Assembly: GCA_003022365.1 (NCBI GenBank)
Contig: PXOU01000007.1
Coordinates: 227-64,226, forward strand
From: Candidatus Saccharibacteria bacterium QS_5_54_17
GTDB taxonomy: Bacteria; Patescibacteriota; Saccharimonadia; QS-5-54-17
Length of the DNA: 64,000 nt
Direction: 5' to 3'
The notes below the pieces were generated by a model that worked only from the letters and a program-made list of their open reading frames with translations, was not told the DNA's origin and searched no databases. Made by a program: the position numbers and the translations under genes. Numbering within the stretch: position 1 is the stretch's first letter; each line of letters begins with the position of its first letter. This document shows, piece after piece, positions 31,990-56,628 of this stretch.

Positions 31990-32300
31990 TCGCCCACTTG
32001 CAATGTCATCCCGGACTCCGGTCCGGGATCTGTTTCAGGCTTGGTTTCAGAACCGGATTCCTAACCAAGTTCGCAGTGACAAATAGGGTGACGCAAAAGA
32101 ATTGTCATCCTGAATTTATTTCAGGATCTGTTTCAAAACCGGATTCCGAACTAAATTCGCAGTGACAAAGAGGCTCTGCAATTTTTTACTTGCTTCTTGC
32201 TCCTTACTTCCTGCTTCCTGTTCCTGTCATCCTGAACCTGCCTGCCGGCAGGCAGGCTTGTTTCAGGATCCATCTCAGGATCAGCTTCAGCATCCCTCCT
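31990..32300. repeat. Composite repeat block R6: hairpin modules, the CT-rich module tttacttgcttcttgctccttacttcctgcttcctgttcc, and the palindrome gtcatcctgaacctgcctgccggcaggcaggcttgtttcaggat.
   Basis: Direct sequence comparison with the other blocks. Confidence 0.8.
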
Positions 32301-35300
32301 AAATATTATCCCCAGTCGGGATCTGTTTCAGCAGCTTGTGGCTGACGCCCCGGAGCGATTTGTCGCTGCATTGACTGTTGTCTTTGGCGCTCGGTCCGGT
32401 CAGCCAGCGTTTCTCGCCGTCGTACATGCAGTAGTGTTTATTGGTCTCGGGGCTGGTAATCAATCGACTGACCTTTTTATCGGCGGTCTTCTGGGCGAAT
32501 AGGTCGACCAGTTTCTGCGTATAAATTTGCGTGTTGCTGCCGAACCACGCATCCGCCGTTTCGCCGCCATCGACAGGGAACTGCCGCCGATTACCATCGT
32601 CGATGACCCCGTCGCTTTTGCTGAGGAGATAGGTGGCTTTTTGGCTGCTTTCCAGGTTGCCAATTTCCGTATCAGTCATTTTGACGTTGCCGCCGAAGCG
32701 GCCCAGCCCAAAGTTCTTAAACGCGGCCAGAGTCGTTATGTGATACAGCTCATTGCCGTCATAGAGATATAACTGTTTATTATCCGGGTTTTGAGAGCTC
32801 ACCAGAACACTCAGATTGTTTTCTTCCAAGAAAGAAGTTAAGCGGGAACTGATGGAGGTTGAATTGTTGCCGGTGCCCCATACTTCCCCGAGTGCCAGGT
32901 TTTTGGTCCGGTACAGGGCGCCGTTCCGGGCAATGCCGTATCCATCCCCGACCGTAAAGTCGTTATTCAGATCCGGCTTTTCTTGGAACCAGTCGCTCAG
33001 CGAGGCACTGGCAATGTTCAGGTTCGGACTGAGTTCCCACTCATCGCTGACCACCTTATGGTATCCGTTGTTATCGAACACGTAATCATCAGTTCCGGAA
33101 GTGAATTGGTGGCCGGTACTGCTTCCGGTGTCCATGCCCTTGATCATGCCATGGGGTAATACGAACGTACCCTGGCCTGTCCCTGAACGCATCAATCGCA
33201 GCTTCTTGAAACTGCCCACGTGGTGCTTAGTGCCGCTGCCGTCCAGGTAGAACACCTTATTGGTGGAAGAACTGGTCACGTACGGAGTGCCGATGCCGTT
33301 TTGATCCGGATATTGATCCAGCACTGCTGCCGAAACGCTCATCGGCGATTCCGGAGCCGTGTAGGCATTTTCCAGCGAATCCTCCAAGTCGTATTTGTTC
33401 TGTTCCATGTAATAAGTAGTGGTGCCGTCCGTAGCCGTGAAGCTGCTGACACTACTATCTTTGGAGAGCATATTCAGGAATGCACCGGAGACTTCCGTTT
33501 TGGCGCCGTCACCACCGGGCTTCCAGTGATTATAAACCCCCGGGCCGGCGATGTGGTGGTACGTATCCTGATTCATCAGATAAATCTTGGTGTCGTATTT
33601 TTCTTGCAACAAAATCGTGGCTTTACCCGCTCCGGCGAAACGGTTTAGGCTGGGTTGGCTGATCCGGGAAAGGTTACCACTGTACACCTGGTCCATGGAT
33701 CCCGAAGAAATCCAGTGCTTATTACCCTGGTTGATAAAGAATATTTTATTGGTATTTGCCGCGGTCGCTTTCGGATAGTGCAATGTTCTTTCCTCCCAGC
33801 GGGGAATACAGTTGCCGTTATCGTCATAACTTTGGCAGAAATATGCCTCAGAGACTGCGATAGCGCTGCCGCTGCCCTCCCATGCGTTCAAAGTAGTCAG
33901 GTTCGGGTAATGCTGGATTACGTTACGGTCGGTATCGGCATTGCTGTCCATCATGTAAATCTTGCCATCAAGCGGTGATTTGATGCGGTATGTAAGCTTT
34001 TTCTTGTTCAGATAGTTAACGGTGTTCTGTTTCAACCACGGGATGTTGCCAAGTTGGAAGTTCCATGCTTTGGCCTGATTATGGCTCCTGACATGAAAAG
34101 CTCTCTTGTCATCCGCAAAATACGCTTTGCCGGTGCCGCGCTCATATGCCAGCCGCCGCAGCGTTCCGCCGTCATCGTATTTATCCAATTGATCAGGGCT
34201 TACATTCTGCTTAGGAAGCTCGTCGAACCCCCAGGCTATCAACGCGTCCTGGTTGGCTATATGTATTTTTAAATTTTCCTCTTTGTTGATGACATATATC
34301 GCCCCCGAATTTTCATTGCGCATCAGCACGATGTCTTGGCTCGGGGTCGGGGAACCGAACCAGTCCGTAAAATCGCGCCAAAAGTTCCGGTTGCCATAGG
34401 TGCTGCAACTATTGCCCGTGCCGTACAGATTATCCAACGCGGCCTGGTTGGGTTGGTAAGGAGTGTAGTTGTACAAAGCCGAGGTGGCCAAGTTCTTTAT
34501 ATCTACGGTATCATTTCCACAGCTGTCATCGGGGTGGTAGTCTATATCGGTCTCGCCGGGCGGGTAGTAGTTGTAGCCGCGGGTTTCCTCCATAATTTCT
34601 TTGAAAAACTTGGCGGCTTGGTTAATCTGGTTATAAAAACCGCGGTATTTCGGATCGCAATCGGAGCTATCGGGGCAGCCGAAGCCGGTAGCGGATTGGT
34701 ATTGGATAATCCACGGCCAGGAGTCGCCGACAAGTGATTGCTCCTTCTGCAGCAGAACCAGGATTACTTGCGGATTTATATCGTGTTTCTGGGAAACATC
34801 CTTAATTAATTGGGCGGCCGATTTGCCGTTGGTGCCAAGGGTGTCATTGGTATTCATGGCGTTGCTGTCGCTTTTGTTGAAGTTGGTGCGGCCGCCCTTC
34901 CACCAGCACATGGTCTTGGCCTTCTCATATCGGTTGTCGCCGGATCCAAAGCCGAACTCTTCCCGTATGTACTTATCGCTGCATTCGGGCATGTTTTCGG
35001 TGGGGTCTTCCTTGTAATCTTTCAAGCACATGTAATCCCGGCCGAAGTCCATCCAACGATTCGACTCGCTGTGCCGCTCCTCACAGCCGCCCATTTCGGA
35101 CATTTCGTTTTCCAAGAAACTTTGGATGTCGCTGACGCTCATGGTATCGGTATCGCGCATGACAGAGTTATCGATCAGTCGCCCGGGGCTGAAATTATCG
35201 GCATCGGCTACCTGCTTGTGGGAACTGACGTTAGTAGCCACCATAATCCCGCCAAGAACCAATACCAAAATGCCTGCCAATACGTATAAAGCCGGGCGCC

Positions 35301-35304
35301 TCAT
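32299..35304 (-). CDS. Large (1001 aa) secreted protein with a lysozyme-like domain and C-terminal ~35-40-aa repeats shared with the amidase and the S8 protease.
   Basis: N-terminal signal/TM. The motif NPQVILVLLQKEQSLVGDSWPW...ATGFGCPD parallels 8816-10018 and 53628-54344. Repeat units KIYLMNQD...HHI, KVFYLDGSGTKHHV and QLYLYDGNELYHI are present. Its start overlaps the stop of 35301-35870. Confidence 0.6.
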   Translation of the reverse strand: MRRPALYVLAGILVLVLGGIMVATNVSSHKQVADADNFSPGRLIDNSVMRDTDTMSVSDIQSFLENEMSEMGGCEERHSESNRWMDFGRDYMCLKDYKEDPTENMPECSDKYIREEFGFGSGDNRYEKAKTMCWWKGGRTNFNKSDSNAMNTNDTLGTNGKSAAQLIKDVSQKHDINPQVILVLLQKEQSLVGDSWPWIIQYQSATGFGCPDSSDCDPKYRGFYNQINQAAKFFKEIMEETRGYNYYPPGETDIDYHPDDSCGNDTVDIKNLATSALYNYTPYQPNQAALDNLYGTGNSCSTYGNRNFWRDFTDWFGSPTPSQDIVLMRNENSGAIYVINKEENLKIHIANQDALIAWGFDELPKQNVSPDQLDKYDDGGTLRRLAYERGTGKAYFADDKRAFHVRSHNQAKAWNFQLGNIPWLKQNTVNYLNKKKLTYRIKSPLDGKIYMMDSNADTDRNVIQHYPNLTTLNAWEGSGSAIAVSEAYFCQSYDDNGNCIPRWEERTLHYPKATAANTNKIFFINQGNKHWISSGSMDQVYSGNLSRISQPSLNRFAGAGKATILLQEKYDTKIYLMNQDTYHHIAGPGVYNHWKPGGDGAKTEVSGAFLNMLSKDSSVSSFTATDGTTTYYMEQNKYDLEDSLENAYTAPESPMSVSAAVLDQYPDQNGIGTPYVTSSSTNKVFYLDGSGTKHHVGSFKKLRLMRSGTGQGTFVLPHGMIKGMDTGSSTGHQFTSGTDDYVFDNNGYHKVVSDEWELSPNLNIASASLSDWFQEKPDLNNDFTVGDGYGIARNGALYRTKNLALGEVWGTGNNSTSISSRLTSFLEENNLSVLVSSQNPDNKQLYLYDGNELYHITTLAAFKNFGLGRFGGNVKMTDTEIGNLESSQKATYLLSKSDGVIDDGNRRQFPVDGGETADAWFGSNTQIYTQKLVDLFAQKTADKKVSRLITSPETNKHYCMYDGEKRWLTGPSAKDNSQCSDKSLRGVSHKLLKQIPTGDNI

Positions 35305-37553: not shown

Positions 37554-37554
37554 C

Positions 37555-37930: not shown

Positions 37931-37955
37931 GTAATAAGTAATAAGTGGGAAGTGG

Positions 37956-40255: not shown

Positions 40256-40257
40256 TC

Positions 40258-41327: not shown

Positions 41328-42260
41328 CTAGTTTTCCTCGAATCCCCAGATCGCCGCAAAGTCTTGATTGGTTAAGCGGCTGAGCTCCCTCACTTCTGGC
41401 CGGAGTTCTTCCGTAAGCCGTTTTCTCACTTCCGGGTCCAGCTCACCCTTCGACTGCTCCTTAAGCAGCAACTTATCCGCCTGTTTTTGCAAGTTGGTAT
41501 ACAAGGTCGGACTCATTAATTTGAAGGCCACGTTCTTTAGCCACATAGTGTGAGCTATTTTGTTAAGCCAGCTTATGCGTGGTTTCTTGCTGTTATGGAC
41601 CGATTGAAAATCGGGTATTACGTCTTCCCTGACGCCAAGAAACCGCAATATTTCTTTATAGGCGGTTTCATTATTTTTCTTGAATTCCTCGTTGGCTATT
41701 ACCATGACATTTTCCTTGCCGAATTGGTCGTAAAAACGCTGTATATGTTTGCTGTATCTGGCCCGTTCACGATAGAAGTGATAGGAAGGGCAACGCGCCC
41801 GTGGCGGGACGTTTTTACCTTTTTTACGGCTACTTTCTAGAGAGATCGCTGTCTGGAAGTCGGTTTCATTTTCCACGGTTTCATTCACGTATTGGGTATG
41901 TAGCGAATGCATGAAATCGACAGGATTCCGCAACATGATGATGATTTTGGCTTTCGGGTTATGTTGGTATATATGGCCCGCCGCCGCTTGGGAATAGCTG
42001 TAGCAAGTAGACGCGTCTCCCCGTAGTTGGCCGGGTTGGCAATGTTTAAAATGTTCCTCATACTTTTCAGGCGTCCGGACCCCGTAATATCTTTGCTTGC
42101 CGTGGAATTGATCGCTTTCTTCCCGAAGATCCGTGGCGAAGTAAGATGGCTCTTTGGGGTAAGACATACAGATCTCAGGATGTTCTGACAAAAAATGGGC
42201 CAAGGCGGTGGTCCCGGATTTTGGCTGGCCGGCGATTACGAAATCAATTTTACATGCCAT
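41328..42260 (-). CDS. Sulfotransferase (PAPS-dependent).
   Basis: The 5'-PSB motif IAGQPKSGTTAL and the sulfotransferase-family region RNPVDFMHSLHTQYV. Confidence 0.7.
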   Translation of the reverse strand: MACKIDFVIAGQPKSGTTALAHFLSEHPEICMSYPKEPSYFATDLREESDQFHGKQRYYGVRTPEKYEEHFKHCQPGQLRGDASTCYSYSQAAAGHIYQHNPKAKIIIMLRNPVDFMHSLHTQYVNETVENETDFQTAISLESSRKKGKNVPPRARCPSYHFYRERARYSKHIQRFYDQFGKENVMVIANEEFKKNNETAYKEILRFLGVREDVIPDFQSVHNSKKPRISWLNKIAHTMWLKNVAFKLMSPTLYTNLQKQADKLLLKEQSKGELDPEVRKRLTEELRPEVRELSRLTNQDFAAIWGFEEN

Positions 42261-42429
42261 AGACTTATCAATAATTTAGCAAAGTTTTACAGTATCAACT
42301 ATAGTGAGTTTTTATGATACCACGGACAAAATAAACGAATGCTATTTTGCCCGTGGCTATTTTCCAGTATAGCAACCCGGGAAAGATTAATATTATCAAC
42401 ATCACAAAAATTGTTATACTTGTAAAACA

Positions 42430-43161
42430 ATGGTTGAGCTCCAATATAAAAATCGGCAATTCCTATTCAATGAAGGCATTGACGGCAACGTAATCCGTAC
42501 TTTGGGAAAAGGCCGGTTCTATGAACCGGGCATGCTGAAATTCATTGAAAAACTCGAGCCAGAAGGCACCATTATCGACGTCGGGGCGAATATAGGCAAT
42601 CACGCGATTTATTTAGGTGCGTTCACGGACTGCCAAAAAGTCATAGCCATTGAACCTCATCCTGGGATCAACCAACATTTAACTGATAACGTGGAGCAAA
42701 ACGGGTTGGCCTCCAAAATCGATGTGCACCATATCGCCGTGGGAGATAAAGCAGGCAAATGCAATATAGAATCCAACTCGGAAAGATATAGGGGAACTGC
42801 GCAAGTCCTGCCGGACTCCCAGGGATCCATTCCTATAAAAAAGCTGGACAATCTTGCCCAAAAAAGAAAGGTTTCGGTTATCAAAATAGACGTGGAAGGA
42901 TTCGAGCCCCAAGTATTACGGGGGAGCAGCAACATCTTATCCCGGCAGGAGCCCCATATTTTCGTGGAAGCTCATGATAGAAAGGCGAAACGGCAAATAG
43001 ATGAGATTTTACACCCCTTGGGCTATAAAGCCGTCAAGGTATTTAATAGGACGCCGACCTATTATTACCGAAAAGATGCTTCCCGAACGGGCATAAAAGA
43101 ATTAATCCAAAGACCGCTCTTTCATTTACGCAGACTGCGCATATTCCGCATTTTGGGTTGA
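42430..43161 (+). CDS. FkbM-family SAM-dependent methyltransferase.
   Basis: IIDVGANIGNHAIYLG and the overall FkbM layout. Confidence 0.75.
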   Translation: MVELQYKNRQFLFNEGIDGNVIRTLGKGRFYEPGMLKFIEKLEPEGTIIDVGANIGNHAIYLGAFTDCQKVIAIEPHPGINQHLTDNVEQNGLASKIDVHHIAVGDKAGKCNIESNSERYRGTAQVLPDSQGSIPIKKLDNLAQKRKVSVIKIDVEGFEPQVLRGSSNILSRQEPHIFVEAHDRKAKRQIDEILHPLGYKAVKVFNRTPTYYYRKDASRTGIKELIQRPLFHLRRLRIFRILG

Positions 43162-43245
43162 TTTTCCCCGTCTCGGTGTAAACGCCCAAAAACCTGGGGA
43201 ATATACGCTCGCAGCTCTACGCGAAAAGAAGAAGTTTGTGCTAAA

Positions 43246-44844
43246 GTGAGGGGCAAGTGGAGATTTAATACCCGGGTTCTTACTTGGTCGGGAGATTTGG
43301 ATATAGTTGTGGAGAAAAAACATAATTTAAAATCATCATTGGTAGGCCTGTGGCAAAGACATACGTGGTTGATAATAGGATTATTCGGGGTTGTCCTGAC
43401 CTTTATAGGTGGTGCTGGTTTGCGAACTACTACTATCCCGTGGCTTTTGAGTGCTGACGCGCCGTTCCATTTGGATTATGCCTGGCAAGTATACAAGGGG
43501 GTTCTGCCGGCGGCGATGGGAGGCATACAAGCACCGGTTGCTGCCCTTCCCAATCACCCGGTCCATTTGGCGGCGCAACACCCGCCGCTTTATTACGCCA
43601 TCCTTGCTCCTTTGGCGGGCCCGTTTATGGATAACGGAGACTGGCCGATGGCGACAGCATTGGGGCGTTTGTTGTCGATGGGGTTAGGGTTGCTTTCCGC
43701 GCTGGCGCTGGCGTGGGTAGCATGGATAGTCGGGGGTAAATATCGGCGCATCCTGGCCATCGCAGCACCGGCGATTGCCATTACTTTCGTGCCGTTTGCA
43801 GGGGTGGCAGCAGCAGTTTATAACGATACATTGGTAGTCTTTACCTCGACCGTAGCGCTCGGGTTGGCCGCTTTAATTATCTACCGAGGGCCGCGCCCGT
43901 CATATGTAGGCGTATTGACCGTAGTTTTATTACTCGGTATGGCCTCGAAAGTATCGTTCGTCAGCGCCTTTTTTGTGGCAGTTTTAAGCCTCATAGGCGC
44001 TTTTGTGCTCCACGGAAAAGACACCTTCTCCAAAAATACGGGAAAGGGTATAGGCTGCGGAGCGCTGGTTTCTTTGGTGGTGATAGGGGGCATCGGTTGG
44101 TTTTATTACCTCCATAATTTCCAAGCAAGCGGATCGCTCATCAGTGCCCAACCAAGCTCACTTCCTCCCATGCGTGAATATAGACCTTTCTTGCAGGTCA
44201 TAATCAGCCAAAAATTGTGGGAGCTTGTGCCTTTTGGCCTATTTCGCCGTTCCTTCCATGAGATAGGAGGGTATACACTTAATCAGTGGATATCAATTTC
44301 CGTATTCGTATTGGGCATGCTGGGGAGCATCGCCTGGTTTGTAAAAGAAAAAGCATGGCATATATTCCACAAGACACGTAGGTTGCACTTATTGGTTGCT
44401 ACTATGTTCACAGCGCATTTCGGCATCGTTTTTGCCCAACAAATGGTTTATGCGACCGGATACGGATCCATCAATTTTAGGTATATTTTGCCGGCCTGGT
44501 TTTTGATGGGATTGGTTTTGGCGTTCGGGGTGTCGGTTTGGCAGTTTTTGCGCGGTTTCGGGGCAGTATTGGTGGCGATCGCCGGATGGGTAGCCGTCAT
44601 TAATTCTACCGTGTTCGCTTTATCAAGCAGGACGAATTTGCCTACTGAGCATGGATGGGTTCCTCTATTACAGTCCGGAGCAGAGCAAAACGGTTTCGCC
44701 CCGGTAATCGTGCCGATACTGCTACTTGCTATAGTGCTCGGTTTAACGTTGATCGCAATAGCGTTATGGTATGCCACCTCCCCGAGGAATATTAAAGCTG
44801 AAGCAAGCAGCAAAAGATTGCCCGACCGTAAGGGGAGCACATGA
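43246..44844 (+). CDS. Polytopic GT-C-fold-like membrane glycosyltransferase, paralogue of 36099-37553.
   Basis: SADAPFHLDYAWQVYKG...QHPPLYYAILAPLAGPF and the matching TM architecture. Confidence 0.5.
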   Translation: MRGKWRFNTRVLTWSGDLDIVVEKKHNLKSSLVGLWQRHTWLIIGLFGVVLTFIGGAGLRTTTIPWLLSADAPFHLDYAWQVYKGVLPAAMGGIQAPVAALPNHPVHLAAQHPPLYYAILAPLAGPFMDNGDWPMATALGRLLSMGLGLLSALALAWVAWIVGGKYRRILAIAAPAIAITFVPFAGVAAAVYNDTLVVFTSTVALGLAALIIYRGPRPSYVGVLTVVLLLGMASKVSFVSAFFVAVLSLIGAFVLHGKDTFSKNTGKGIGCGALVSLVVIGGIGWFYYLHNFQASGSLISAQPSSLPPMREYRPFLQVIISQKLWELVPFGLFRRSFHEIGGYTLNQWISISVFVLGMLGSIAWFVKEKAWHIFHKTRRLHLLVATMFTAHFGIVFAQQMVYATGYGSINFRYILPAWFLMGLVLAFGVSVWQFLRGFGAVLVAIAGWVAVINSTVFALSSRTNLPTEHGWVPLLQSGAEQNGFAPVIVPILLLAIVLGLTLIAIALWYATSPRNIKAEASSKRLPDRKGST

Positions 44845-46355
44845 ATTATATACATCGCCTAAAACCTAAACTGAATCCATATTTTCAAAATCCCATCAAC
44901 AAAACGTTGGGAATACTGGGTTCCAAAGGTTTCCGGATATTTACCTACGGATGGTTTCTTGTCCAAGCCTCATATATAGCGGTATCCACCAAATACCGTA
45001 TTGTACCGGATGCGGGCGCTCATTATGGCAGGATACGCCTTTTTGCCCGCGATGGACTCGATCCGTTCATCCAAAACCAACAGGGTTTCTATTTCGTGGG
45101 CGAGATGATCAGAAATCCTGACCCGCTGTATCATTACCTATTCAGCATTATATATAGATTAGTGCCGTTTCAGGATCCCAACCCCCTCAGTAATCAAGTA
45201 CCAAAAACGGATACGGCGACCATCATGCTGTTTGAGTTCTTAAATATAGCGCTGGTACTGGGTGGGCTTATTATGTTTTACAAACTAATGAAACGGCTTG
45301 ATTTGTCAGCTTTGACCAGGAATATTTCCTTGTTCATGATGGCGACTACGTTAATGTTTGTATTTTTGGCAGGGGGCATCAATTACGACAATCTGTTGTT
45401 TCTGGTGGCGATGTCGGTGTTTTACTTCTTCGTGAAGTTCATGCAAACGCGGACGCTTAAAAGTTTGCTGAGTTTGCTGATTCTTTTGGTGATTGCCGGA
45501 TTGACGAAAACCGCTTTCATGCCTATTGCCGCAGTAGTCTTTGTTTTGACGGGCTATTTTGCCTTTAGATCCCGAAAGGATATTTTTTCCCAAGTCAGAG
45601 GTGTACTCCGTTTGCAAAAAAAGCAACAAGCGATCTTGGGTGTTCTGCTCATATTGCTGCTTGCGTTCGGCGGCCTATTCGTTGAACGCTACGCGGTTAA
45701 TTTAGTGGAGTATGGCTCTGTGCAACCGGGTTGCCTCCAGTTGCATACGCATAAACAATGCAGCCAATGGGGCGTTTTTTCCCGTAGGCAAAAATTTGAA
45801 AGCACTCCTACTACGTATGAATTCGACCCCAGTGAATTCAGTATCAAATGGGCGCAGAGGATGCGCTTTTATACGTTTAGCGCCATAGGGCACGCTTCGT
45901 TTGCCGAAACGAATTTGATTAAATACGGGTCATATGCCTTCATCGGTTTGATGGTAATAGCCTCTATCAGGAAATTCGACCGGCGCGAGAAAGAGGTAAA
46001 CATCCTGCTGGCGATATCCATTTTTTTCATACTGTTGCTGTTGGCTGTCAATTACTTCGGAGCGTATATGACCAGCGGTATATTCGGTATAGCACTACAA
46101 GGCAGGTATGCGTTCCCTGTTCTGCCTTTGCTGTACGCGGTAGGAAACCACTATGTTTTCAAGCTACTGGCGTGGAAGTGGCTTAAGGCGTTGTACGCAT
46201 TGTTTATTTTGGTCATATTCATACCTTCGGGAGTGATTCACTATATATTCTGGACGGGTAAGAATTGGCATACCGAGTATACACCGGAAATTCATCACGC
46301 CATCAAGGAAAACTTGCGTTGGTTCAACTATAAGGTGCTAAAAATTTTTAACTAA
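44841..46355 (+). CDS. Polytopic membrane protein, a possible third GT-C-like glycosyltransferase/polymerase.
   Basis: About 11 TM helices. The first loop IVPDAGAHYGRI resembles the DAPxHLDY loop of the neighbouring paralogues. Its start overlaps the upstream stop. Confidence 0.45.
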   Translation: MNYIHRLKPKLNPYFQNPINKTLGILGSKGFRIFTYGWFLVQASYIAVSTKYRIVPDAGAHYGRIRLFARDGLDPFIQNQQGFYFVGEMIRNPDPLYHYLFSIIYRLVPFQDPNPLSNQVPKTDTATIMLFEFLNIALVLGGLIMFYKLMKRLDLSALTRNISLFMMATTLMFVFLAGGINYDNLLFLVAMSVFYFFVKFMQTRTLKSLLSLLILLVIAGLTKTAFMPIAAVVFVLTGYFAFRSRKDIFSQVRGVLRLQKKQQAILGVLLILLLAFGGLFVERYAVNLVEYGSVQPGCLQLHTHKQCSQWGVFSRRQKFESTPTTYEFDPSEFSIKWAQRMRFYTFSAIGHASFAETNLIKYGSYAFIGLMVIASIRKFDRREKEVNILLAISIFFILLLLAVNYFGAYMTSGIFGIALQGRYAFPVLPLLYAVGNHYVFKLLAWKWLKALYALFILVIFIPSGVIHYIFWTGKNWHTEYTPEIHHAIKENLRWFNYKVLKIFN

Positions 46356-46395
46356 CAAGCCTAGCCGTTAAAATACCGGCGCTATTTCCTTTTCT

Positions 46396-47355
46396 TTATT
46401 TCTGATACCGCATCCGACGCAGATGCTCCAATGATTCTTCGTGTAGCGTGCGATTGACGGCGATCAGGTCGGCCAGTATTCCCACCACTATCAACAGGAA
46501 GCCGACCAGTAACAAGACGCCTCCCCCGATAAGCGACTGGAGGTGTCCTGATACTAACCCTCCTTCTATAATTATCAGTACTATATACCGGATAAACGGT
46601 AATACCCCCAGAATGGCCAGAAGGGCACCTAATCTCAGGAATACGCTGTACGCCCGGTGCATGGCGTAGCTGCGGATGATGGCCGAGGCGGATTTGAATA
46701 CGTGCTGCCATATGTTTTTGAATAACCGCGACTCCCTGGTTTTGGCGTTGGTGGTGACGGCCACGGAGGTAATGGGTATATTTTTTCTGCCCGCGTAAAC
46801 GATGGTCTCCGTACAGTAACTGAAATCGGTCACCACGTTCATTTTAAAAGCTGCATCCCGGGAGTAAGCACGGAAGCCGCTGGCGGCATCGGGGATTTTG
46901 GTGCCGGCGGCCTTATTAACCACCCAACTTCCCGTTTTCTGTAAAAATTTTTTAAGTGGACCGAATTCGTCAATTTTGCCGGTTTGCCGGTCCGCTACCA
47001 CGATGTCGTGGCTCCCGTCCATGATCGGTTGTATCAGGTCCGGAATACGTTCCTGGGGGTATTGGTTGTCCCCGTCGGTATTGACGATGATATCCGCCCC
47101 CAGCTCGAGCGCGGCGCGTATGCCTTCGGCAAAGGTGGTGGCCAATCCTTTGTTCTGTTTATGCTGGATGATGTGATCCACACCGAGCTCTCCGGCGACC
47201 TCGACGGTTCGATCGCTCGAGCCGTCGTCGATAATCATAATTTCGACACTTTTAACGCCTTTTATCTGGCGGGGGATGGTGCCTAGCACCATCGGCAGGG
47301 TGGTTTCTTCGTTGTAACAGGGAATTTGGATGATGCATTTGGGGCGCTTCTTCAT
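46396..47355 (-). CDS. Polyprenyl-phosphate glycosyltransferase (GT2, GtrB/ArnC/DPM1-like) with C-terminal TM helices.
   Basis: CIIQIPCYNEETTL...MIIDDGSSDRT...VNTDGDNQYP, plus two C-terminal TM helices. Confidence 0.8.
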   Translation of the reverse strand: MKKRPKCIIQIPCYNEETTLPMVLGTIPRQIKGVKSVEIMIIDDGSSDRTVEVAGELGVDHIIQHKQNKGLATTFAEGIRAALELGADIIVNTDGDNQYPQERIPDLIQPIMDGSHDIVVADRQTGKIDEFGPLKKFLQKTGSWVVNKAAGTKIPDAASGFRAYSRDAAFKMNVVTDFSYCTETIVYAGRKNIPITSVAVTTNAKTRESRLFKNIWQHVFKSASAIIRSYAMHRAYSVFLRLGALLAILGVLPFIRYIVLIIIEGGLVSGHLQSLIGGGVLLLVGFLLIVVGILADLIAVNRTLHEESLEHLRRMRYQK

Positions 47356-47546: not shown

Positions 47547-49943
47547 TCATTTGTGGCAGGCGACGGTTTCACCGCTGTCATAATTCTCAAGCATACCCGA
47601 GCCTATGGTCATGACGTCTTTCCAGCGGAAGCCGGCTTTGGTGTAAGAACGGGGAGTAACGATGTACCGGCGTACATCCGTTGTGCCGTCAGTATCGATA
47701 GCGAATACCTTGGGCGAGTCATCAGTGGTAACAGTGGTGCCGGTGCGGAGTGTCGAAAGCGAATTACCAGAAGTTAGTGCATCAATCTTGCCCTGGCTGA
47801 CTCTCCGAACGTCCCGCCGGCGTTTGTACCCGTGGCTTCCCAGAACGTTCGGGTGGGTGATATAGCGTTTCTTGCCATCTTCTGCTCGGAAGATCCTGTG
47901 TGTGTCACTGGATGTGAATACTAAACCGTCGGGAATGTCCGAACTGGCATAGACGGCAGGGCCGTCGCTGTAGCTATCCAGCCGCCGTTGGCTGACTTGG
48001 TAGGTAGGCGCATCATCGAGGTCGAATGTGTGGTATGCTTTAAGGCTGGAGATATGGCGTTTCACGTAACCGCTACTTGTTTTATCGATAATGAATATCT
48101 TGTTGCCGCTTTTTTGTTTGACGAGAGTCCCTTCACCGATTTTAATAGCATCGCCATCACTTAAATTACTTAATTCCCTCTTGGTAATATTGACTACTTT
48201 ACGGGAGCTGAGACGGTTGCTTCTGATGGCCAACGGGGATGTAAGATGGCGTTTTTTGCCGTTTTCGAGCAGGAAAATCTTACCGTTATCGGGGTTACGA
48301 ATAATTGTGCCGTTGGGCCGGGGATTGTCCGTGTACCCGAAACTGCAGAATACCTTGAGGTGGGTGCCGTAGTGGTTGTTGAAGGTGACGTTGTTTTCGC
48401 TGACCAAGCGCACGCCTTCGTAGTAGCGGCCGAAGGCGCCGCTCGGGCGTGCCCATTTGAACGTGAAGCTGCCGGTTTGCCCGGGGTCGACGCTATTTTC
48501 GTTCAGTACGGCCGGTGTTTGGCTGTCCAACCAGTCCCCGCCTTGGAAGTCGCTGCCCTCGCCCCGCGGACTGTCGGTTTTCAATAGCATTCGGTTAGTG
48601 GAATTGCTCCAGGTTTGGGTACCCGTGTTCTTGAACTCCATGGTGACTTGGGAACTCCTGTCGCCGCTGAGGTCCACCACCTTGAAATTAGTCAGCCGTG
48701 CGGCGTAGCCCCATGGATTATTACTGTTCTTGTCGGCCGTGTCCTGGCGGATGCTGTCCATTTTGTCGTAGAATAAGTCGCCGTTGCAGGTCGTATTGCC
48801 GGCGTCCCGATGGGCGGCGATGGTGGGAAGGTTGAGGCAGTTATTACCGTTTTCATCACAAAACTGGTGTGTGGTTTGGGGGTCGATTTCGAAACTGGTA
48901 GTTTTCCAGGACAGTAAGGTAGAGAGACTGTCCAGCGTGGCATCGGTGGGTGGGGTCACGTTGCCGTCGTTGAGTTCCTGACACGTCGAACTGTCACTTT
49001 GGAAACAGCCCAGTACCGCTACTCCCATGGAGCCTTTATTGTAATCACGGACGTGGCCGGCCCGTACGTGGTCGCCGCCGTAACGCCCCTCATAAATCGT
49101 TCCTTCGTGGTCGAGTAAATAATTGTAGCCGATATCGCCCCAGCCGAGTGTCTTAGCGTGATAGTCCCAAATCGCCCGGACGACTTCTTCGGGATTGGAT
49201 TGTTGATTGGAATGGACCGTGTGGTGGATGAAGATTTGCTCGGTGTCGTTGTACGTCGGGGGCCAGTAAGGACTGTCGCCCTGGAATTTGTCGCCGTTAG
49301 GGTCAGGGCTGTCCCACTCCGAACGCGTTACGATGTTCGGTCCGCCGTTGGCGGCGAATACCTTTTTGCCTAAGGCGGAGACTGCTTCGGTCGCTTTTTG
49401 AATGCCTGATTTGCGGGAATCAAGATAGGTCATTTTCATATCAGTAATCCTGGGCGATGCTTCATCCGGGGAATTCCGTTGTAAGGTAACGCGGTATTGG
49501 AAGTGGCTGCCTTCGAGGAAAATGGGTGTTTCCATGTAGGTTACCCCGGCCATGGGGTCGTTACCGCGTACGGACTTGACGGCATCTATTTCCATCCACC
49601 GCGTCCAGTCTGTGCCATCGCTTGAAACCCGGATTTCCACCGTGCGGTTTTGATTATCGGCTCGTGTTTCTTCCCACATGGGGGCAATGGCGTTGAACGG
49701 GTGGTTGGCTTCCAGTGGCTGGGAGGTTATGGTTTTTTGGGTGTCACGGCCGGAAATTTTCAGAACCGAAGGCCCGTTGTTTACGCCCAACACCTCCTGG
49801 CTGGAGCTTTGAATGCTGGTGTCTAATGGATTGGCAGTGGTCAAGTAGAAACCAGCAGACAGCAGGACAGCAACCACGGCGCCCATAATGATTTTTGATT
49901 TTTTGCTGGCGAACACGGTTTTGAGCGGAAAATGTATGTTCAT
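47547..49943 (-). CDS. Large secreted N-acetylmuramoyl-L-alanine amidase (Amidase_2/PGRP domain) with C-terminal targeting repeats.
   Basis: Signal peptide. The Amidase_2 region IHHTVHSNQ...WGDIGYNYLLDHEGTIYEGR...GHV...NKGSMGVAVLG. Repeats include KIFLLENGKKRHLTSP, KIFIIDKTSSGYVKRHIS and HRIFRAEDGKKRYITHP. Confidence 0.8.
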   Translation of the reverse strand: MNIHFPLKTVFASKKSKIIMGAVVAVLLSAGFYLTTANPLDTSIQSSSQEVLGVNNGPSVLKISGRDTQKTITSQPLEANHPFNAIAPMWEETRADNQNRTVEIRVSSDGTDWTRWMEIDAVKSVRGNDPMAGVTYMETPIFLEGSHFQYRVTLQRNSPDEASPRITDMKMTYLDSRKSGIQKATEAVSALGKKVFAANGGPNIVTRSEWDSPDPNGDKFQGDSPYWPPTYNDTEQIFIHHTVHSNQQSNPEEVVRAIWDYHAKTLGWGDIGYNYLLDHEGTIYEGRYGGDHVRAGHVRDYNKGSMGVAVLGCFQSDSSTCQELNDGNVTPPTDATLDSLSTLLSWKTTSFEIDPQTTHQFCDENGNNCLNLPTIAAHRDAGNTTCNGDLFYDKMDSIRQDTADKNSNNPWGYAARLTNFKVVDLSGDRSSQVTMEFKNTGTQTWSNSTNRMLLKTDSPRGEGSDFQGGDWLDSQTPAVLNENSVDPGQTGSFTFKWARPSGAFGRYYEGVRLVSENNVTFNNHYGTHLKVFCSFGYTDNPRPNGTIIRNPDNGKIFLLENGKKRHLTSPLAIRSNRLSSRKVVNITKRELSNLSDGDAIKIGEGTLVKQKSGNKIFIIDKTSSGYVKRHISSLKAYHTFDLDDAPTYQVSQRRLDSYSDGPAVYASSDIPDGLVFTSSDTHRIFRAEDGKKRYITHPNVLGSHGYKRRRDVRRVSQGKIDALTSGNSLSTLRTGTTVTTDDSPKVFAIDTDGTTDVRRYIVTPRSYTKAGFRWKDVMTIGSGMLENYDSGETVACHK

Positions 49944-49974
49944 ACTTTACTCATTATAACGCACATAGGACGGG

Positions 49975-50235
49975 TTATTCCTGCCTACCCTCTTTGTCAT
50001 TCCGAACCCTCTCCGTCACTCCTAACCCCATCCGTCATTCCGAATTTATTTCGGAATCCGGTCCTGAAATAGATCCTGAAATAAATTCAGGATGACAAAG
50101 AGAAAATTCATTATTACGAGGCTACCCTCTCTGTCATTCCGGCCACCGAGCCGGGATCCATTAACCCGATATGATTCTGAAACGGATCCTGAAACAAGTT
50201 CAGGATGACATCCGGAGCCGGGTCCGGGATAACAA
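49975..50235. repeat. Composite repeat block R9.
   Basis: It contains tgtcattccgaa..., cggtcctgaaatagatcctgaaataaattcaggatgaca, tgtcattccggccaccgagccgggat and gatcctgaaacaagttcaggatgaca. Confidence 0.8.
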
Positions 50236-50254
50236 AAACAAGGAAAACGACAAT

Positions 50255-52474
50255 TTAGTTAATAGGATCGCCGTCCTGGCTGGGCAAGTCATTAGTATCG
50301 ACTTGGAACGAACGGGAAGAACCCAGGCCCAACACGCGGTAAATTAACAGCGTTTTAATGTGGCGTTTTTCGATATTACCGTTACTGTCGTAGTTTACTG
50401 CGTACAATGGCGGGTCGTCATCCGTTACTAACGTGCCTTCGCGAAAATCAAGGGAATTCCCAGTGCCTAAGTTCATATCGTCCTTCGTGGCTTCTTTGAC
50501 GCCGCCACGGAATTGGTGGCTTTTGAGCACGGCGGGCGATTTCACGTATCGTCGTTGGCTATTTTCCACCAAATAAATTTGGGGTTTGCCGTCCGGACTG
50601 ATGAGTACGCCGTCGGGGTGTTGGTCGGCCGAGGAAACTGCCGGGCCGTCTTCGCCGGGGAGTACCCGCGGCTTCACTTTCATGACTTCCGAATTACTAA
50701 ATCCGAGCCCGTGGAAAACGCTGGGAGAGCCGATATGGCGTTTGCGTACCGAGCCGCTATCGTGGTCGATGATATAAATCTTGGTATCGTTGGTGGGCGT
50801 AACCAACGTTCCTTCCCGTAATGGCAATGAATTGCCGGAGTTAAGATTGGCGTCGGGAAGCGTAGTCCGTTTGATGCGTTTCCATTGGAAATTATGGCTG
50901 TTGAAAATGGCCGGGTCCGTTATGTAGCGGCGTTTCCCGTTTTCCAGCAGGAATACTCTCGGGTTGCCGACGGTGCTTATGAGTGTACCGTCGGGGTGGG
51001 TACTGTCAGCATGCTTGTTCGCTTTATGGATATTCAAGCGGCCAAACCCGTGTTTCTTAGTTCTGGTGCTGCCCATTTCAGATACTTTGTCCACGCCTTT
51101 TTGCAGATTGGTGCGGATTTGATTGAACGTGGCGTCCGGAAACATACCTTTTAGTAGCGCGGCGGTGCCGGTGACGTGCGGGGTGGAAAGGGAGGTGCCG
51201 CTGGCGTTACCAACGTATTCGCGATTGCCGTTTGCTTCGGACGGAGCGGTCAGGGCGGGGACGTCCTTGCCGGGGGCGATCAGATCCAACTGGTCACCGT
51301 AATTGGAGAATAATGCCCGTTTGTCTTCTACCGTAGAGGCACCCACCGCTAACGTGTGCCGGGAAGCAGCCGGGTAACAGACGTGGTCATCGCCGTTGTT
51401 GCCACTGGCGGCGGCGGTTATGATGCCGTTGTTCCGGGCCTCCTTCAGCGCCTCCTCGAGCTTATCGTCGATGATGTCGCAACTGCCATTGTCGTCATAT
51501 ATAGCCAGGCTGAGATTAATCGCGTCGGCGCCGTTATCCGTGGCGTATTCGACGGCTGAAACCACGCGAGCGGTAGTAGCTCTTCCATACCCGTCGAATA
51601 CCCGCAGATTCATGATTTTAGCCTTCCAATCGGTGCCGGCTACCAGGGTATTATTATTTGTTTTGGCGGCCGCGATAGACCCGACAACAGTGCCATGCCC
51701 GACATATCGAGCATCTCCGTCGTTTTTATTCAATAAACTTTTATCGTTCTCGTTGTCGCAGGAATAGGGTTGGGGACCATTATCGCCGCTACTCGTGGTG
51801 TCGGTGTCATTCGGGCAGTCGCTGCCGCTGGCGTAGCCACCGGTGAAGTCCCAGCCATATTTGTCGTCGGTATATCCGTTCAAGTCATCGTCTGTATCAT
51901 TAAGGCCGTTTACTTCGTCGCTATTCTCCCATCGTTGCGAATCAACCATATCGTTATGGTCATGATATGGGTCCTGGTTGAACAAAACGCCGCTGTCCAC
52001 GATGGCGATGATGGTATCAGTTGAGCCGGTGGTGATGTCCCACCCCTTAGGAGCGTCCGTTTTTTTCATGTTCCACTGTTCGGAATATTTGGAGTCGTTG
52101 GGAGTTTTGGTGAGCTGGTACTTGTAGTTTGGGGAGATATCCAGGCTTTCGGTTTGCATGCCCGAAAGGGAAGCACCCCCTTCGGGGCTAAGGGCCCCCT
52201 TGACCTTACCGGGCGAGCCGTTAAACGTCACAAGTGTTTCATTGTCTGGAAGCGGAAACGTGCGTTTGATTCCCAACCCGGCTTTTTCGGCGGCAGTTTT
52301 GATTTCTGCTACTTGTTTATCAGGCAACCGGATGATGCTGCTATCAGCCGGCGGTTTCGGTTCTGATTCCTGCCCTTTCACTGCGCCGGGGAGTAAAACG
52401 GTGCCCAGGATGATAAAAACCGCTCCGGCAGCAGTTGAGAGAGAAAAGAGAGAAAAGTATTTCATGAAAATCAA
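50255..52474 (-). CDS. Secreted subtilisin-like serine protease (peptidase S8) with C-terminal targeting repeats.
   Basis: Catalytic triad contexts AIVDSGV, HGTVVGSIAA and GTSLSTPHVTGTAALL. Signal peptide. Repeats PRVFLLENGKRRYITDP, PQIYLVENSQRRYVKSP and PPLYAV. Confidence 0.85.
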   Translation of the reverse strand: MIFMKYFSLFSLSTAAGAVFIILGTVLLPGAVKGQESEPKPPADSSIIRLPDKQVAEIKTAAEKAGLGIKRTFPLPDNETLVTFNGSPGKVKGALSPEGGASLSGMQTESLDISPNYKYQLTKTPNDSKYSEQWNMKKTDAPKGWDITTGSTDTIIAIVDSGVLFNQDPYHDHNDMVDSQRWENSDEVNGLNDTDDDLNGYTDDKYGWDFTGGYASGSDCPNDTDTTSSGDNGPQPYSCDNENDKSLLNKNDGDARYVGHGTVVGSIAAAKTNNNTLVAGTDWKAKIMNLRVFDGYGRATTARVVSAVEYATDNGADAINLSLAIYDDNGSCDIIDDKLEEALKEARNNGIITAAASGNNGDDHVCYPAASRHTLAVGASTVEDKRALFSNYGDQLDLIAPGKDVPALTAPSEANGNREYVGNASGTSLSTPHVTGTAALLKGMFPDATFNQIRTNLQKGVDKVSEMGSTRTKKHGFGRLNIHKANKHADSTHPDGTLISTVGNPRVFLLENGKRRYITDPAIFNSHNFQWKRIKRTTLPDANLNSGNSLPLREGTLVTPTNDTKIYIIDHDSGSVRKRHIGSPSVFHGLGFSNSEVMKVKPRVLPGEDGPAVSSADQHPDGVLISPDGKPQIYLVENSQRRYVKSPAVLKSHQFRGGVKEATKDDMNLGTGNSLDFREGTLVTDDDPPLYAVNYDSNGNIEKRHIKTLLIYRVLGLGSSRSFQVDTNDLPSQDGDPIN

Positions 52475-52749: not shown

Positions 52750-53247
52750 TTGAAACATTCAAACGGCATTGATACACGTGGTAATATTAAGGACCTGGGG
52801 TATGTCCTCGAAGCTCTTTACCAGCTTCATACAAATAAACTACCCCCCTCTCTTATCAAGGAGTTGATGATGACGCTCCCAGGCAATCCGGAAAATCAAC
52901 CCAAAGCAGAGACGCGAGAGCAGCTTGTGCGATATTGGGAGAATTCTTTGGATAAACTACAAGAAGAAGATGATGCTGTTGTGGCAGGCTATATTCTCGG
53001 CGATATTGTCGATACTGAGTTTTGGGAAGATGAATGGATGCAAAGCGAAGAGGCTGACCCGGAGATCATCGAAGTACACGACTTAGTAGCGGCTCTCGAA
53101 ATTCCCGGTGGTGAAACTATTTTTTCTTTCGAAGATGACGGCCCCATTAGCCGTGAGCAAGCATGGGACCGGGTTAAAGAAGGAATTGAGTCATTAAAAA
53201 AGAAGTATCTTCCGGCTGAAGAACAAAGCGGATCTCAAAACGGGTGA
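52750..53247 (+). CDS. Small acidic cytoplasmic protein of unknown function.
   Basis: A 165-aa ORF with non-repetitive composition, isolated between a repeat block and the protease gene. No recognisable motifs. Confidence 0.4.
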   Translation: MKHSNGIDTRGNIKDLGYVLEALYQLHTNKLPPSLIKELMMTLPGNPENQPKAETREQLVRYWENSLDKLQEEDDAVVAGYILGDIVDTEFWEDEWMQSEEADPEIIEVHDLVAALEIPGGETIFSFEDDGPISREQAWDRVKEGIESLKKKYLPAEEQSGSQNG

Positions 53248-53627: not shown

Positions 53628-54344
53628 TTAATTGGCGCCGAACCACTTCTGCATGTAAGTGACGAAGTTGTAGTTTCCATAAAAGTATCGGTCATTGTAG
53701 GGACGCCAGGCGCTGTCGACCCGATGCGGGGTGTAGTTATACAGCGCGGCAGTGGCGCAGTTTTGTATATGGGTCGGTCTTCCGTCGATGGTGATTACGT
53801 TCCCTTTACTCCGTTGCGGATTCACCCGCCATTGCCAGGCGGATAGGTAGTCACCGCACGCTCGGTCGTAACCCGCCCGGAGAAGCTGGGTGCCCAGCTT
53901 CACTTGGTTGGCGAATCCATAGTATTCCGCTTCACAATCCGCGCCGTCGGGGCAGCCGTACCCCATGGCGGTCCGGTACTGCCATGGCTCCGGCGATGTT
54001 TCGGTGACCAACGAGTTCTCTTTCTGGAGCGTGACGAGTATGACCTTGGGGTTTATAGCGTGTTGCCGGGATAGGCGACGGATGATCTCGGCGGCGGATT
54101 CGCCCGTAGCCGGGTCTTGGTAATTCTTTAAGCATAAGTCATCGTCTTTGTCGCATTCGGTGCCTTTTTTATCCAGGAACTGCTGGATCTCCTGGGTCCG
54201 CATACCAAATCCGCCGGTAAAGACCCGGTCGCTAATTAGACGCTGGGTATATTTCCCGTCAATAGCCGGTAATTCCTGGGTGGCTCCGGGAGTAGGAAAT
54301 AAGACGACCCCCGCCCATAACAGTAATATCCACCTCCAACCCAT
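53628..54344 (-). CDS. Secreted lysozyme-like (glucosaminidase/SLT-like) cell-wall hydrolase.
   Basis: Signal peptide. The motif NPKVILVTLQKENSLVTETSPEPW...MGYGCPDGADC is shared with 32299-35304 and 8816-10018. Confidence 0.6.
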   Translation of the reverse strand: MGWRWILLLWAGVVLFPTPGATQELPAIDGKYTQRLISDRVFTGGFGMRTQEIQQFLDKKGTECDKDDDLCLKNYQDPATGESAAEIIRRLSRQHAINPKVILVTLQKENSLVTETSPEPWQYRTAMGYGCPDGADCEAEYYGFANQVKLGTQLLRAGYDRACGDYLSAWQWRVNPQRSKGNVITIDGRPTHIQNCATAALYNYTPHRVDSAWRPYNDRYFYGNYNFVTYMQKWFGAN

Positions 54345-54384: not shown

Positions 54385-54700
54385 TAACCGATAATTCTGA
54401 ACGGAATCTGATCTGAAAAGATCCTGAAACAAGCCTGCCTGCCGGCAGGCAGGTTCAGGATGACAGGTTCAGGTGCGAAACTCACAAAAACATTATTGCA
54501 AGGACCGTCCTTGCAATACATAAATTGCCGCATAAGCTTTTGTTTAGCCAATCTTGCAAGGACGGTCCTTGCAATTGCGTGTCACGTCTTCCACTTACTT
54601 CTTACTGCTTACTGCTTGCTTCTTGTTCTTTGTTCCCTCTTTGTCATTCCGGCCGCCGAGCCGGAATCCAAGCAATCCAATTGGAATCTAAAAAAGTTTT
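54385..54700. repeat. Composite repeat block R11 plus two inverted copies of the 21-bp palindrome TTGCAAGGACCGTCCTTGCAA (54495-54515 and 54553-54574) upstream of rmlA.
   Basis: Direct reading of the sequence. The CT-rich module runs 54596-54640 and the tgtcattccggccgccgagccggaat hairpin follows. Confidence 0.8.
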
Positions 54701-55566
54701 TACTCCTGCTCTAAAATCTGCATCAAATACTGCCCGTAGCCGCTTTTAATCAGCGGCCGGGCCAGCTCTTCCAGTTGCGCGGGAGTGATATACCCTTCAC
54801 GATAGGCGACTTCTTCGGGGCAGCCGATTTTGAACCCCTGGCGCGACTCGATGACGTGGATGAAGTTAGCCGCGTCCATCAACGACTGGAAGGTGCCGGT
54901 ATCCAGCCAGGCGGTGCCACGGTCCAGCATGCCGACAGCCAGTTGGTTCTGATGCAAATATTCCGTCATCACGTCAGTAATCTCGTATTCACCCCGGGCG
55001 CTGGGCTCGATGCGCTTGGCAACATCTACCACGTCATTATCAAAGAAATACAAACCCGGAACCGCGTAGGATGACTTCGGTTCTTCCGGCTTTTCCTCGA
55101 TTGACACGGCTTTACCGGATCGGTCAAACTCGACGACGCCGTACCGCTGCGGGTCCGCTACGTGGTAGGCGAAGACCACGCCGCCGTCGGGATCGGTATA
55201 ATTTTTGAGCTTGTCGCCCAGTTCCGAGCCGTAAAATATATTGTCGCCGAGCACCAGTGCCGCGCTGTCATTGTCGATAAAATCTTCTGCCAATACGAAC
55301 GCGTGGGCCAAACCTTCCGGCTTTTCCTGCACAATGTAAGTGAATTGGCATCCCCACCCGGAACCGTCACCGAGTAACCGCTGGAACTGTTCCTGATCAT
55401 GCGGCGTCGTGATGATAGCGATCTCACGGATACCCGCCAACATCAGCGTGCTCAGCGGATAATAAATCATCGGCTTGTCATACACCGGCATGATCTGCTT
55501 GGATATGCCTTTGGTAATCGGATAAAGTCGAGTACCCGACCCGCCTGCTAAGATAATCCCTTTCAT
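54700..55566 (-). CDS. rfbA: Glucose-1-phosphate thymidylyltransferase.
   Basis: [24 protein letters not shown]...; the start is taken at MKG rather than the upstream in-frame M. Confidence 0.9.
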
Positions 55567-55626
55567 ACACAAACAGGGTATAGGATTCAATTACTAGGAT
55601 CTAGTGCGCAAGGACCATCCTTGTTA

Positions 55627-56628
<1,002 letters not shown>

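Follow-up and report, generated by a model that had tools for sequence, protein, structure and literature searches.

A widespread extracytoplasmic repeat with a predicted EccB-type fold in three proteins of a Candidatus Saccharibacteria surface-glycan locus

Introduction

Do enzymes of different chemistry encoded in one bacterial locus share a common repeat, and what would such a repeat do? The question is raised by a stretch of 64,000 nucleotides of Candidatus Saccharibacteria bacterium QS_5_54_17 (contig PXOU01000007.1, positions 227 to 64,226 of the forward strand), here called the window, to which all positions below refer. An initial annotation had described a novel repeat of 35-40 amino acids (aa) shared by three large secreted hydrolases, namely an amidase, an S8 protease and a 1001-aa protein labelled lysozyme-like. 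That description had been placed at 47547-52474, where the amidase and protease genes are located, and the gene of the 1001-aa protein lies outside this interval. Here we show that the repeat is real and that it belongs to a large family of extracytoplasmic modules. Its predicted fold is that of the periplasmic repeats R1-R4 of the type VII secretion protein EccB, and we favour a role in holding or targeting enzymes at the cell envelope.

Results

A repeat common to three proteins

The amidase gene (47547..49943, minus strand) encodes a secreted or membrane-anchored N-acetylmuramoyl-L-alanine amidase of 798 aa with a C-terminal repeat array. Its Amidase_2 catalytic domain spans aa 232-388 (48780..49250, minus strand; Pfam PF01510, E = 1.1e-13, 52 bits against a cutoff of 26), and endolysin/amidase families of PHROGs matched the protein as well. 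A possible Ig-like domain at aa 434-523 (48375..48644, minus strand; Pfam N_BRCA1_IG, E = 0.0059, below cutoff) lies between the catalytic domain and the repeats. The protease gene (50255..52474, minus strand) encodes a secreted subtilisin-family (S8) protease of 739 aa, also with a C-terminal repeat array, in which the Peptidase_S8 domain occupies aa 153-461 (51092..52018, minus strand; Pfam PF00082, 130.7 bits, E = 8.6e-38). The 1001-aa protein (32299..35304, minus strand) is secreted or anchored. Its N-terminal domain is uncharacterised, and a long stretch of degenerate repeats comes after it; no family of Pfam, NCBIfam or PHROGs matched it. As read from the sequence, a hydrophobic segment for export or anchoring stands at the N-terminus of all three repeat proteins; it is located at aa 17-35 in the amidase and is signal-like in the protease.

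All of the peptides quoted in the initial annotation were found in the three open reading frames (ORFs). A hidden Markov model (HMM) of the unit, for which 127 units were taken exclusively from other organisms, scored the protease at 139 bits (E = 4e-43), the amidase at 134.7 bits (E = 9e-42) and the 1001-aa protein at 68.1 bits at the whole-protein level (E = 5.6e-21), while none of the further ORFs of the window reached E < 1. The top score among 900 shuffled copies of the three proteins was 5.0 bits. With an HMM made from the eight units of the amidase and the protease, the 1001-aa protein was recovered at E = 5e-18 among 273 window ORFs, and the runner-up had an E-value of 0.099. The shuffle control and the cross-organism HMM rule out a compositional artefact, and the repeat common to the amidase, the protease and the 1001-aa protein is therefore real, as had been claimed. 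The claimed period of 35-40 aa has to be corrected, since the measured unit length is 58-68 aa and the quoted peptides represent the conserved core of each unit (strand 2, strand 3 and helix).

The coordinates of the arrays were verified by translation, and the independent E-values (i-E) of their units were obtained with the same non-window HMM. The amidase array (47550..48317, minus strand) contains u1 at 48138-48317 (i-E 4.7e-14), u2 at 47934-48137 (i-E 1.5e-08), u3 at 47751-47933 (i-E 1.8e-07) and u4 at 47550-47750 (i-E 6.5e-10). The protease array (50258..50995, minus strand) contains u1 at 50819-50995 (i-E 1.7e-16), u2 at 50618-50818 (i-E 4.6e-11), u3 at 50444-50617 (i-E 1e-09) and u4 at 50258-50443 (i-E 0.0053). 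The best-kept unit of the 1001-aa protein, aa 323-384 (34153..34338, minus strand; i-E 9.9e-07, 22.5 bits, HMM positions 4-58), was the sole unit of that protein to be significant alone. Downstream of it, aa 385-1001 (32302..34152, minus strand) form a degenerate repeat region with uncertain unit boundaries that includes three of the quoted peptides. At least five other units were weak there, with i-E values of 0.009-0.8: 33688-33765 (0.077), 33520-33624 (0.0093), 33190-33279 (0.82), 32632-32793 (0.12) and 32302-32472 (0.013), all on the minus strand.

The arrays of the amidase and the protease each consist of exactly four contiguous units. The C-terminal regions of the two proteins align in register over about 250 residues with approximately 28-33% identity, and the units follow the order A-B-A-B, with u1 and u3 of type A and u2 and u4 of type B. 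Identity was 33-48% among A units and 27-40% among B units, while A and B units shared 16-31%. A 4-6-residue insertion in the hairpin between strands 2 and 3 was clear in three of the four B (even) units. Because the two types alternate, the module is best described as an (A-B)x2 super-repeat. The conserved set of the whole family comprises G3, L5, VY14-15, G20, KR22-23, F31, G35, W38 and G54, each kept in 69-88% of units, and the window units mostly keep G-T-L, V-[FY] and K-R-x-I.

Family size and partner domains

To determine family size, 1.84 billion cluster representatives (50% identity) were scanned exhaustively with the HMM, which returned 12,626 representatives at E<=1e-3, 6,181 at E<=1e-10 and 1,325 at E<=1e-30, with 1 to about 20 copies per protein. 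A word-indexed protein search was insensitive to the repeat and gave 8 matches, then 2. The array was C-terminal in 111 of 159 proteins (the 150 best representatives and the earlier matches), and unit spacing peaked at 55-65 aa.

Partner domains were counted by a Pfam scan of 70 top-scoring, many-copy repeat proteins, a biased sample. SpoIID was present in 14 of the 70 and Amidase_2 in 12, followed by Peptidase_S8 (5), N_BRCA1_IG (4, best E = 1.3e-11), M23 (3) and Glucosaminidase (3). CHAP (1), NlpC/P60 (1), GH46, nuclease, CAP and other domains were present in one or two proteins each. Most of the fused catalytic domains thus act on the wall. The EccB model T7SS_ESX1_EccB also matched 11 of the 70, on the repeat units themselves and not as a separate domain.

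No model of Pfam or NCBIfam covered the window repeats, even at E<=10. LysM, SH3b, CW_binding_1/2, SLH, PG_binding_1, LGFP and SPOR were each considered as known wall-binding repeats and rejected, as none matched at E<=10 for array segments or at E<=1 for 135 single units. The earlier statement that the module is not LysM, SH3b, CW_binding, SLH or PG_binding therefore holds. PHROGs holds the repeat as phrog_9616, a family of unannotated function, which matched aa 542-601 of the protease (E = 1.2e-13) and aa 544-600 of the amidase (E = 3.4e-9). Apart from this entry, neither Pfam nor NCBIfam nor PHROGs has a model dedicated to the family. In the literature, no EccB-type repeats were found described outside type VII secretion, though InterPro, CATH and ECOD may already group these domains. 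The supposed novelty thus survives in that the window copies fall under no named model, but the repeat is not an orphan, given at least 12,626 clusters at 50% identity.

The predicted unit has the fold of the EccB repeats

AlphaFold2 modelled the four-unit protease array with a pLDDT of 85.1 and a pTM of 0.65, and a single unit with a pLDDT of 81.6. In the predicted unit, three strands are followed by a helix, a fourth strand and a short helix. When the four-unit model was compared with the Protein Data Bank (PDB) by Foldseek, ranks 1-11 were all EccB5, EccB1 or EccB3 (E 3.8e-5 to 8.8e-3, probability up to 0.99), and the next match had E = 0.09. The global template modelling (TM) score against EccB was about 0.2, which we attribute to a different arrangement of the units in the protease array and in EccB. 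The single unit superposed on EccB5 with TM 0.64-0.68 and a root-mean-square deviation (rmsd) of 2.6-2.9 Å over 59-62 columns, and on EccB1 (3x3n) with TM 0.62; rmsd values were up to 3.3 Å over the EccB matches. Beta-propeller blades (PQQ, YWTD, NHL) were rejected as candidates: there were weak PQQ matches only (E 0.03-0.8), the modelled units contain helices and form no propeller, and propellers appeared in Foldseek at E>=0.09.

At the sequence level, PF05108, the whole-protein EccB model, matched its 11 member proteins with a best E-value of 8.8e-17. Among the 135 single units it gave 8 matches (best 1.2e-4) and was the sole recurrent family, all others matching at most two units. These matches fall at profile positions of about 161-251 and 417-464, roughly R2 and R4; in EccB1, R2 is E185-P241 and R4 is G391-L445 (PMC4769845). 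The gathering score of 27 was reached in two family members, P0181 (29.8 bits) and P0207 (27.2 bits), while a phmmer search with P0207 returned noise only. The model-based comparison thus assigns the repeat to the EccB R1-R4 fold, and the family is probably a remote homolog of those repeats. Mapping to an established family therefore came out in part: the fold is that of EccB R1-R4 and PF05108 picks out a minority of units, but the EccB repeat is a structural one and not an established binding repeat.

EccB R1-R4 (PF05108; 4KK7, 3X3M, 5CYU, 7NPS) and the window repeats are alike in being alpha/beta units of about 55-60 aa with a four-stranded sheet and two helices, in being extracytoplasmic and in occurring typically in fours. 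EccB supplied the best, and the only significant, PDB fold matches of the repeat model. The architectures differ, however. EccB consists of a transmembrane helix followed by a periplasmic domain, with a central beta-sheet core domain between R1/R4 and R2/R3 and a conserved C-terminal motif; both the core domain and the motif are absent from the window proteins, in which the units are contiguous in the model, without an extra domain, and are fused to catalytic domains. The window proteins are not EccB. Furthermore, Pfam scans of the larger window ORFs found no type VII secretion families (eccC, eccD, mycP, WXG100), with several ORFs having no Pfam match and ORFs below 120-200 aa left out.

The best NCBIfam match of the S8 protease was the type VII secretion mycosin (137.8 bits), far under the cutoff of 278.75. 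A mycosin-like S8 domain is thus fused here to EccB-type repeats, a pairing of S8 and repeat that recurs in 5 of the 70 family members, and in ESX-5 the mycosin MycP5 contacts the EccB5 periplasmic domain (PMC8131196). The pairing may be a coincidence from generic S8 similarity. When the S8 domain was used as a tblastn query, the 40 records listed were of ordinary subtilases, with no ESX locus among them.

Two-unit relatives in actinophages

In a viral structure library (BFVD), a protein of Rhodococcus phage Weasels2 (A0A1I9SA71; E = 1.2e-6, TM 0.74) and one of Streptomyces phage LukeCage (A0A345MGB2; TM 0.70) matched two units, with rmsd values of 2.7-3.1 Å for both phages. A further BFVD match is A0A6J5PWI6. 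The two-unit proteins of actinophages and phrog_9616 belong to the same family as the window repeats. The actinophage versions differ in being free-standing proteins of about 100-115 aa without a catalytic domain.

The N-terminal domain of the 1001-aa protein

Conserved LQKE(Q/N)SLV, GYGC and ALYNYTP motifs mark the N-terminal domain of the 1001-aa protein (aa 40-320; 34345..35187, minus strand). A secreted paralog of 238 aa (53628..54344, minus strand), which adjoins rmlA and rmlB, consists of this domain alone; it is 35% identical to the domain in the 1001-aa protein (E = 2.5e-31), and the repeat HMM found nothing in it. The domain family had 2,985 matches, which without exception are named hypothetical and lack a Pfam model; wherever the source names an organism, they come from Patescibacteria. 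Among the 120 matches listed, 76 carried the repeat, and exactly four copies were present in 69 of these 76. Other listed members have LGFP, DUF5648, FG-GAP/VCBS or Ig-like modules in place of the four-repeat module.

The domain had no sequence relative in the PDB and none in Pfam or PHROGs, and an hhalign comparison with the SLT protein of the window was empty. The lysozyme-like label was thus supported by no tool, and we have dropped it. An hhalign comparison with the GH73-type protein of the window was non-significant (E = 0.08) and placed the QKE motif on the catalytic-Glu helix. Judging from this placement, the domain may be a glycosidase.

The commonest repeat carrier among the listed homologs of this domain is a conserved Patescibacteria protein of about 450 aa, and genes for this combination of domain and four repeats were looked up in five genomes. 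In four of them the gene lies in a conserved block with a WecG-type glycosyltransferase, M23, LigB/Memo, def and fmt, near Mur ligase, penicillin-binding protein or MurG genes; the lineages carry different names. In the fifth (contig L082) it belongs to a polysaccharide cluster, where it comes after RmlB-like, RmlD-like and RmlA-like genes. From this context, the protein looks like a conserved envelope-maintenance gene of Patescibacteria. A general tie between repeat genes and dTDP-rhamnose genes was considered and rejected, as the window and L082 showed it and the four other genomes did not.

Selection and charge

An ortholog of the amidase with 92% identity (P0127) is located on the metagenome contig L001, and the glycosyltransferase family 2 (GT2) gene after it is the same neighbour that the amidase has in the window; no close relatives of the amidase were found among GTDB representative genomes. 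Between the two orthologs, the ratio of nonsynonymous to synonymous substitution rates (dN/dS) was 0.057 for the catalytic region (aa 201-420) and 0.29 for the repeat array, climbing to 0.41 in unit 3 and 0.64 in unit 4. The amidase repeats are under purifying but relaxed selection and evolve faster than the catalytic region.

The amidase array is basic (isoelectric point, pI, 9.8; net charge +14), while the N-terminal part of the protein has a pI of 5.3. In both the amidase and the protease, strongly basic A-type units (pI 10.4-11.3) stand beside acidic catalytic parts (pI 4.9-5.3). The idea that the repeat is basic in general and binds anionic polymers was rejected, however, as the family-wide median unit pI is 6.0 and the basic charge belongs to the amidase array and not to the family. 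In this organism, the basic amidase array may hint at an anionic ligand, perhaps the sulfated glycan apparently made by the locus.

Genomic context of the repeat genes

The three repeat genes lie in a surface-glycan locus (25943-31986, 36099-47355, 54700-56622 and 61478-63205). Its genes encode a Wzm/Wzt ABC exporter, GT2 and GT4 glycosyltransferases, a PMT-type membrane glycosyltransferase, FkbM and other methyltransferases, two sulfotransferases, RmlA, RmlB and a fused ATP sulfurylase/APS kinase for the synthesis of 3'-phosphoadenosine 5'-phosphosulfate (PAPS), together with two large membrane ORFs without a Pfam match. This gene content suggests a methylated, sulfated glycan, maybe with rhamnose. 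Small acidic ORFs without a family match flank the repeat genes. The ORF at 35301-35870 (minus strand) encodes a secreted low-complexity protein of 189 aa; as its stop and the start of the 1001-aa gene overlap, the two may be translationally coupled. The ORF at 52750-53247 (plus strand, 165 aa) lies between the S8 gene and the gene of the 238-aa paralog.

Elsewhere in the window, a type IV secretion-like cluster (4198-17640, plus strand) comprises a PrgI-family protein (4198-5148, plus strand), a VirB4/TraG-type ATPase (6434-8356, plus strand) and two composite wall hydrolases, one with Glucosaminidase and M23 domains (8798-10018, plus strand) and one with SLT and M23 domains (15109-16413, plus strand). 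Large ORFs without a family match were found at 225-2957, 11906-15112 and 16417-17640. The chromosomal origin region (18356-24217) contains recF (18356-19390, minus strand), dnaN (19590-20675, minus strand), dnaA (21018-22391, minus strand) and yidC (23264-24217, plus strand), and a LexA gene is located at 59814-60491. DnaA was 77%, 60%, 52% and 51% identical to proteins of Candidatus Saccharibacteria metagenome-assembled genomes, and the lower matches came from other Patescibacteria; by its DnaA the organism is thus a Saccharibacterium.

Discussion

What, then, would the repeat do? At a probability of about 0.58, our reading is that the window arrays are divergent members of a large unnamed extracytoplasmic family with an EccB-type fold, and that their role is envelope retention or targeting. 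Envelope targeting is favoured because the arrays are extracytoplasmic, terminal, variable in copy number and fused mostly to peptidoglycan-acting domains, and because they are interchangeable with other terminal modules, occur in cell-wall neighbourhoods and show a weak fold likeness to the wall binders of phage lysins. From architecture and fold we infer a wall-binding role, and a wall ligand common to the three enzymes is plausible. The initial proposal of a shared targeting module agrees with this, as the module is carried by enzymes of differing chemistry. After export, the array would bind a repeating component of the envelope (peptidoglycan or a glycan linked to the wall) at several sites of low affinity, and would thereby hold the catalytic domain at the wall.

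Both the fold and the architecture of terminal repeats on wall hydrolases are already known kinds. LysM, SH3b, CW_binding_1/2, SLH, PG_binding_1 and LGFP likewise stand in tandem and in variable copy number at the end of secreted wall-acting enzymes, and LGFP is interchangeable with the repeat in the family of the N-terminal domain. These classical wall-binding repeats differ in having another fold and no sequence match to the window repeat. PlyCB, of the streptococcal phage lysin PlyC, and LysIME-EF1 achieve multivalency by rings of subunits, while the repeats described here stand in tandem in one chain. The proximity of rmlA and rmlB is the sole tie to PlyCB-type binding of polyrhamnose, and it is a circumstantial one.

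Several points weigh against envelope targeting or against the link to EccB. PF05108 matched none of the window proteins or units, and profiles of the unit, of two proteins and of four units, when compared with PDB sequences, gave noise and no EccB chain. As there is no sequence link to EccB from the window side, convergence of a small fold is possible. The peptidoglycan binding of the EccB repeats is itself a proposal only (PMC4769845). In the single biological assembly with a solved structure, the repeat domains are engaged in protein-protein contacts: EccB5 forms dimers via R1 and R4 and touches the subtilase MycP5 (PMC8131196). Among the partner domains, S8, nuclease and CAP are not wall enzymes, and the census was drawn from the biased sample described above. 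PlyCB and the C-terminal wall-binding domain of LysIME-EF1 did appear among the single-unit fold matches, but the likeness was weak throughout (TM 0.30-0.38, E>0.4) and no sequence similarity to the repeat was detected: PlyCB matched with TM 0.37-0.38 and 21% identity over 53 columns (E 1.2-3.1), and the LysIME-EF1 domain with TM 0.30-0.35. Furthermore, the G-Y-x-W motif of the family is mostly lost from the window units, where the W is left only in protease u1 and amidase u4. Taken with the basic A units, this loss suggests a lineage-specific adaptation of the ligand site.

The relatives that have been characterised experimentally act in assembly: in addition to the EccB5 contacts just described, R1 packs with R4 and R2 with R3 in EccB1 (PMC4769845). 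The array could accordingly be a protein-protein assembly module by which the enzymes dimerise, oligomerise or dock to another envelope protein or machine, as in EccB. The dominance of four copies, as in EccB, is consistent with this (of the 120 listed homologs of the N-terminal domain, 76 bear the repeat and 69 of these have four copies), as are the A-B-A-B order, which suggests paired units, and the pTM of 0.65, which suggests a defined mutual arrangement. One of the window carriers is, moreover, a subtilase with the mycosin as its best NCBIfam match, though far under the cutoff. We nevertheless consider an assembly role, the main rival of envelope targeting, unlikely, since copy numbers of 1 to about 20 in the family are typical of avidity repeats rather than of a fixed interface, and since the units accompany many catalytic domains that are unrelated to each other and other terminal modules can take their place. 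There is no conserved partner gene beside the carriers, and the central domain and the conserved C-terminal motif, which are part of the EccB interfaces, are absent here. An inert spacer or stalk that keeps the catalytic domain off the membrane, with the three proteins alike through recent duplication and not through a shared function, would explain the strong degeneration of the 1001-aa array, the window copies without conserved family residues and the dN/dS values of amidase units 3 and 4. This is very improbable, as a specific motif set is kept over thousands of clusters, the amidase array as a whole has a dN/dS of 0.29 and AlphaFold2 predicts confidently folded globular units. The arrays of the amidase and the protease, at about 28-33% identity, are not the products of a recent duplication.

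If the repeats do bind the envelope, whose envelope would it be? One source describes every cultivated member of the Saccharibacteria as an episymbiont on other microbes (PMC11623550), and the pair described in another has an Actinomyces host (PMC7784981). Given this lifestyle of the group, the array might be an adhesin that aims lytic enzymes of an episymbiont at the envelope of a bacterial host, probably an actinobacterium. In favour of this, the fold is otherwise met in actinobacterial settings (EccB, and two-unit proteins from phages of Rhodococcus and Streptomyces), the rate of evolution is higher in the repeats than in the catalytic domain, and the amidase array carries a strongly basic charge. 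Host targeting in this form appears doubtful at best: nothing indicates host specificity, the family has a median unit pI of 6.0, and the commonest repeat carrier among the listed homologs of the N-terminal domain lies in syntenic housekeeping and cell-wall blocks in four of five genomes, which fits maintenance of the producer's own wall. A broader version, in which a widespread module binding wall glycopolymer or peptidoglycan gave rise to the EccB repeats and the actinophage proteins as offshoots and aims the amidase, the subtilase and the putative glycosidase at an actinobacterial-type host envelope, seems to us no less doubtful. The suggestion of a host or prey surface as target thus gained no specific support, and the cell-wall-synthesis neighbourhoods of that commonest carrier point to the envelope of the producer. 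We therefore continue to favour retention or targeting at the envelope.

For the family, a dedicated model of a domain that occurs in more than 12,000 clusters would annotate thousands of proteins now named hypothetical, and the repeat is common on surface enzymes of Patescibacteria. Furthermore, our results tie the periplasmic repeats of EccB to modules that occur mainly on peptidoglycan hydrolases, which would support the proposal that EccB contacts the wall, and small soluble repeat proteins offer a test bed for that proposal. For Saccharibacteria, lytic enzymes that share one module are candidates for roles in division, envelope turnover and host interaction. If the broader version of host targeting were true, it would provide a function for the periplasmic domain of EccB and a determinant of the interaction between episymbiont and host.

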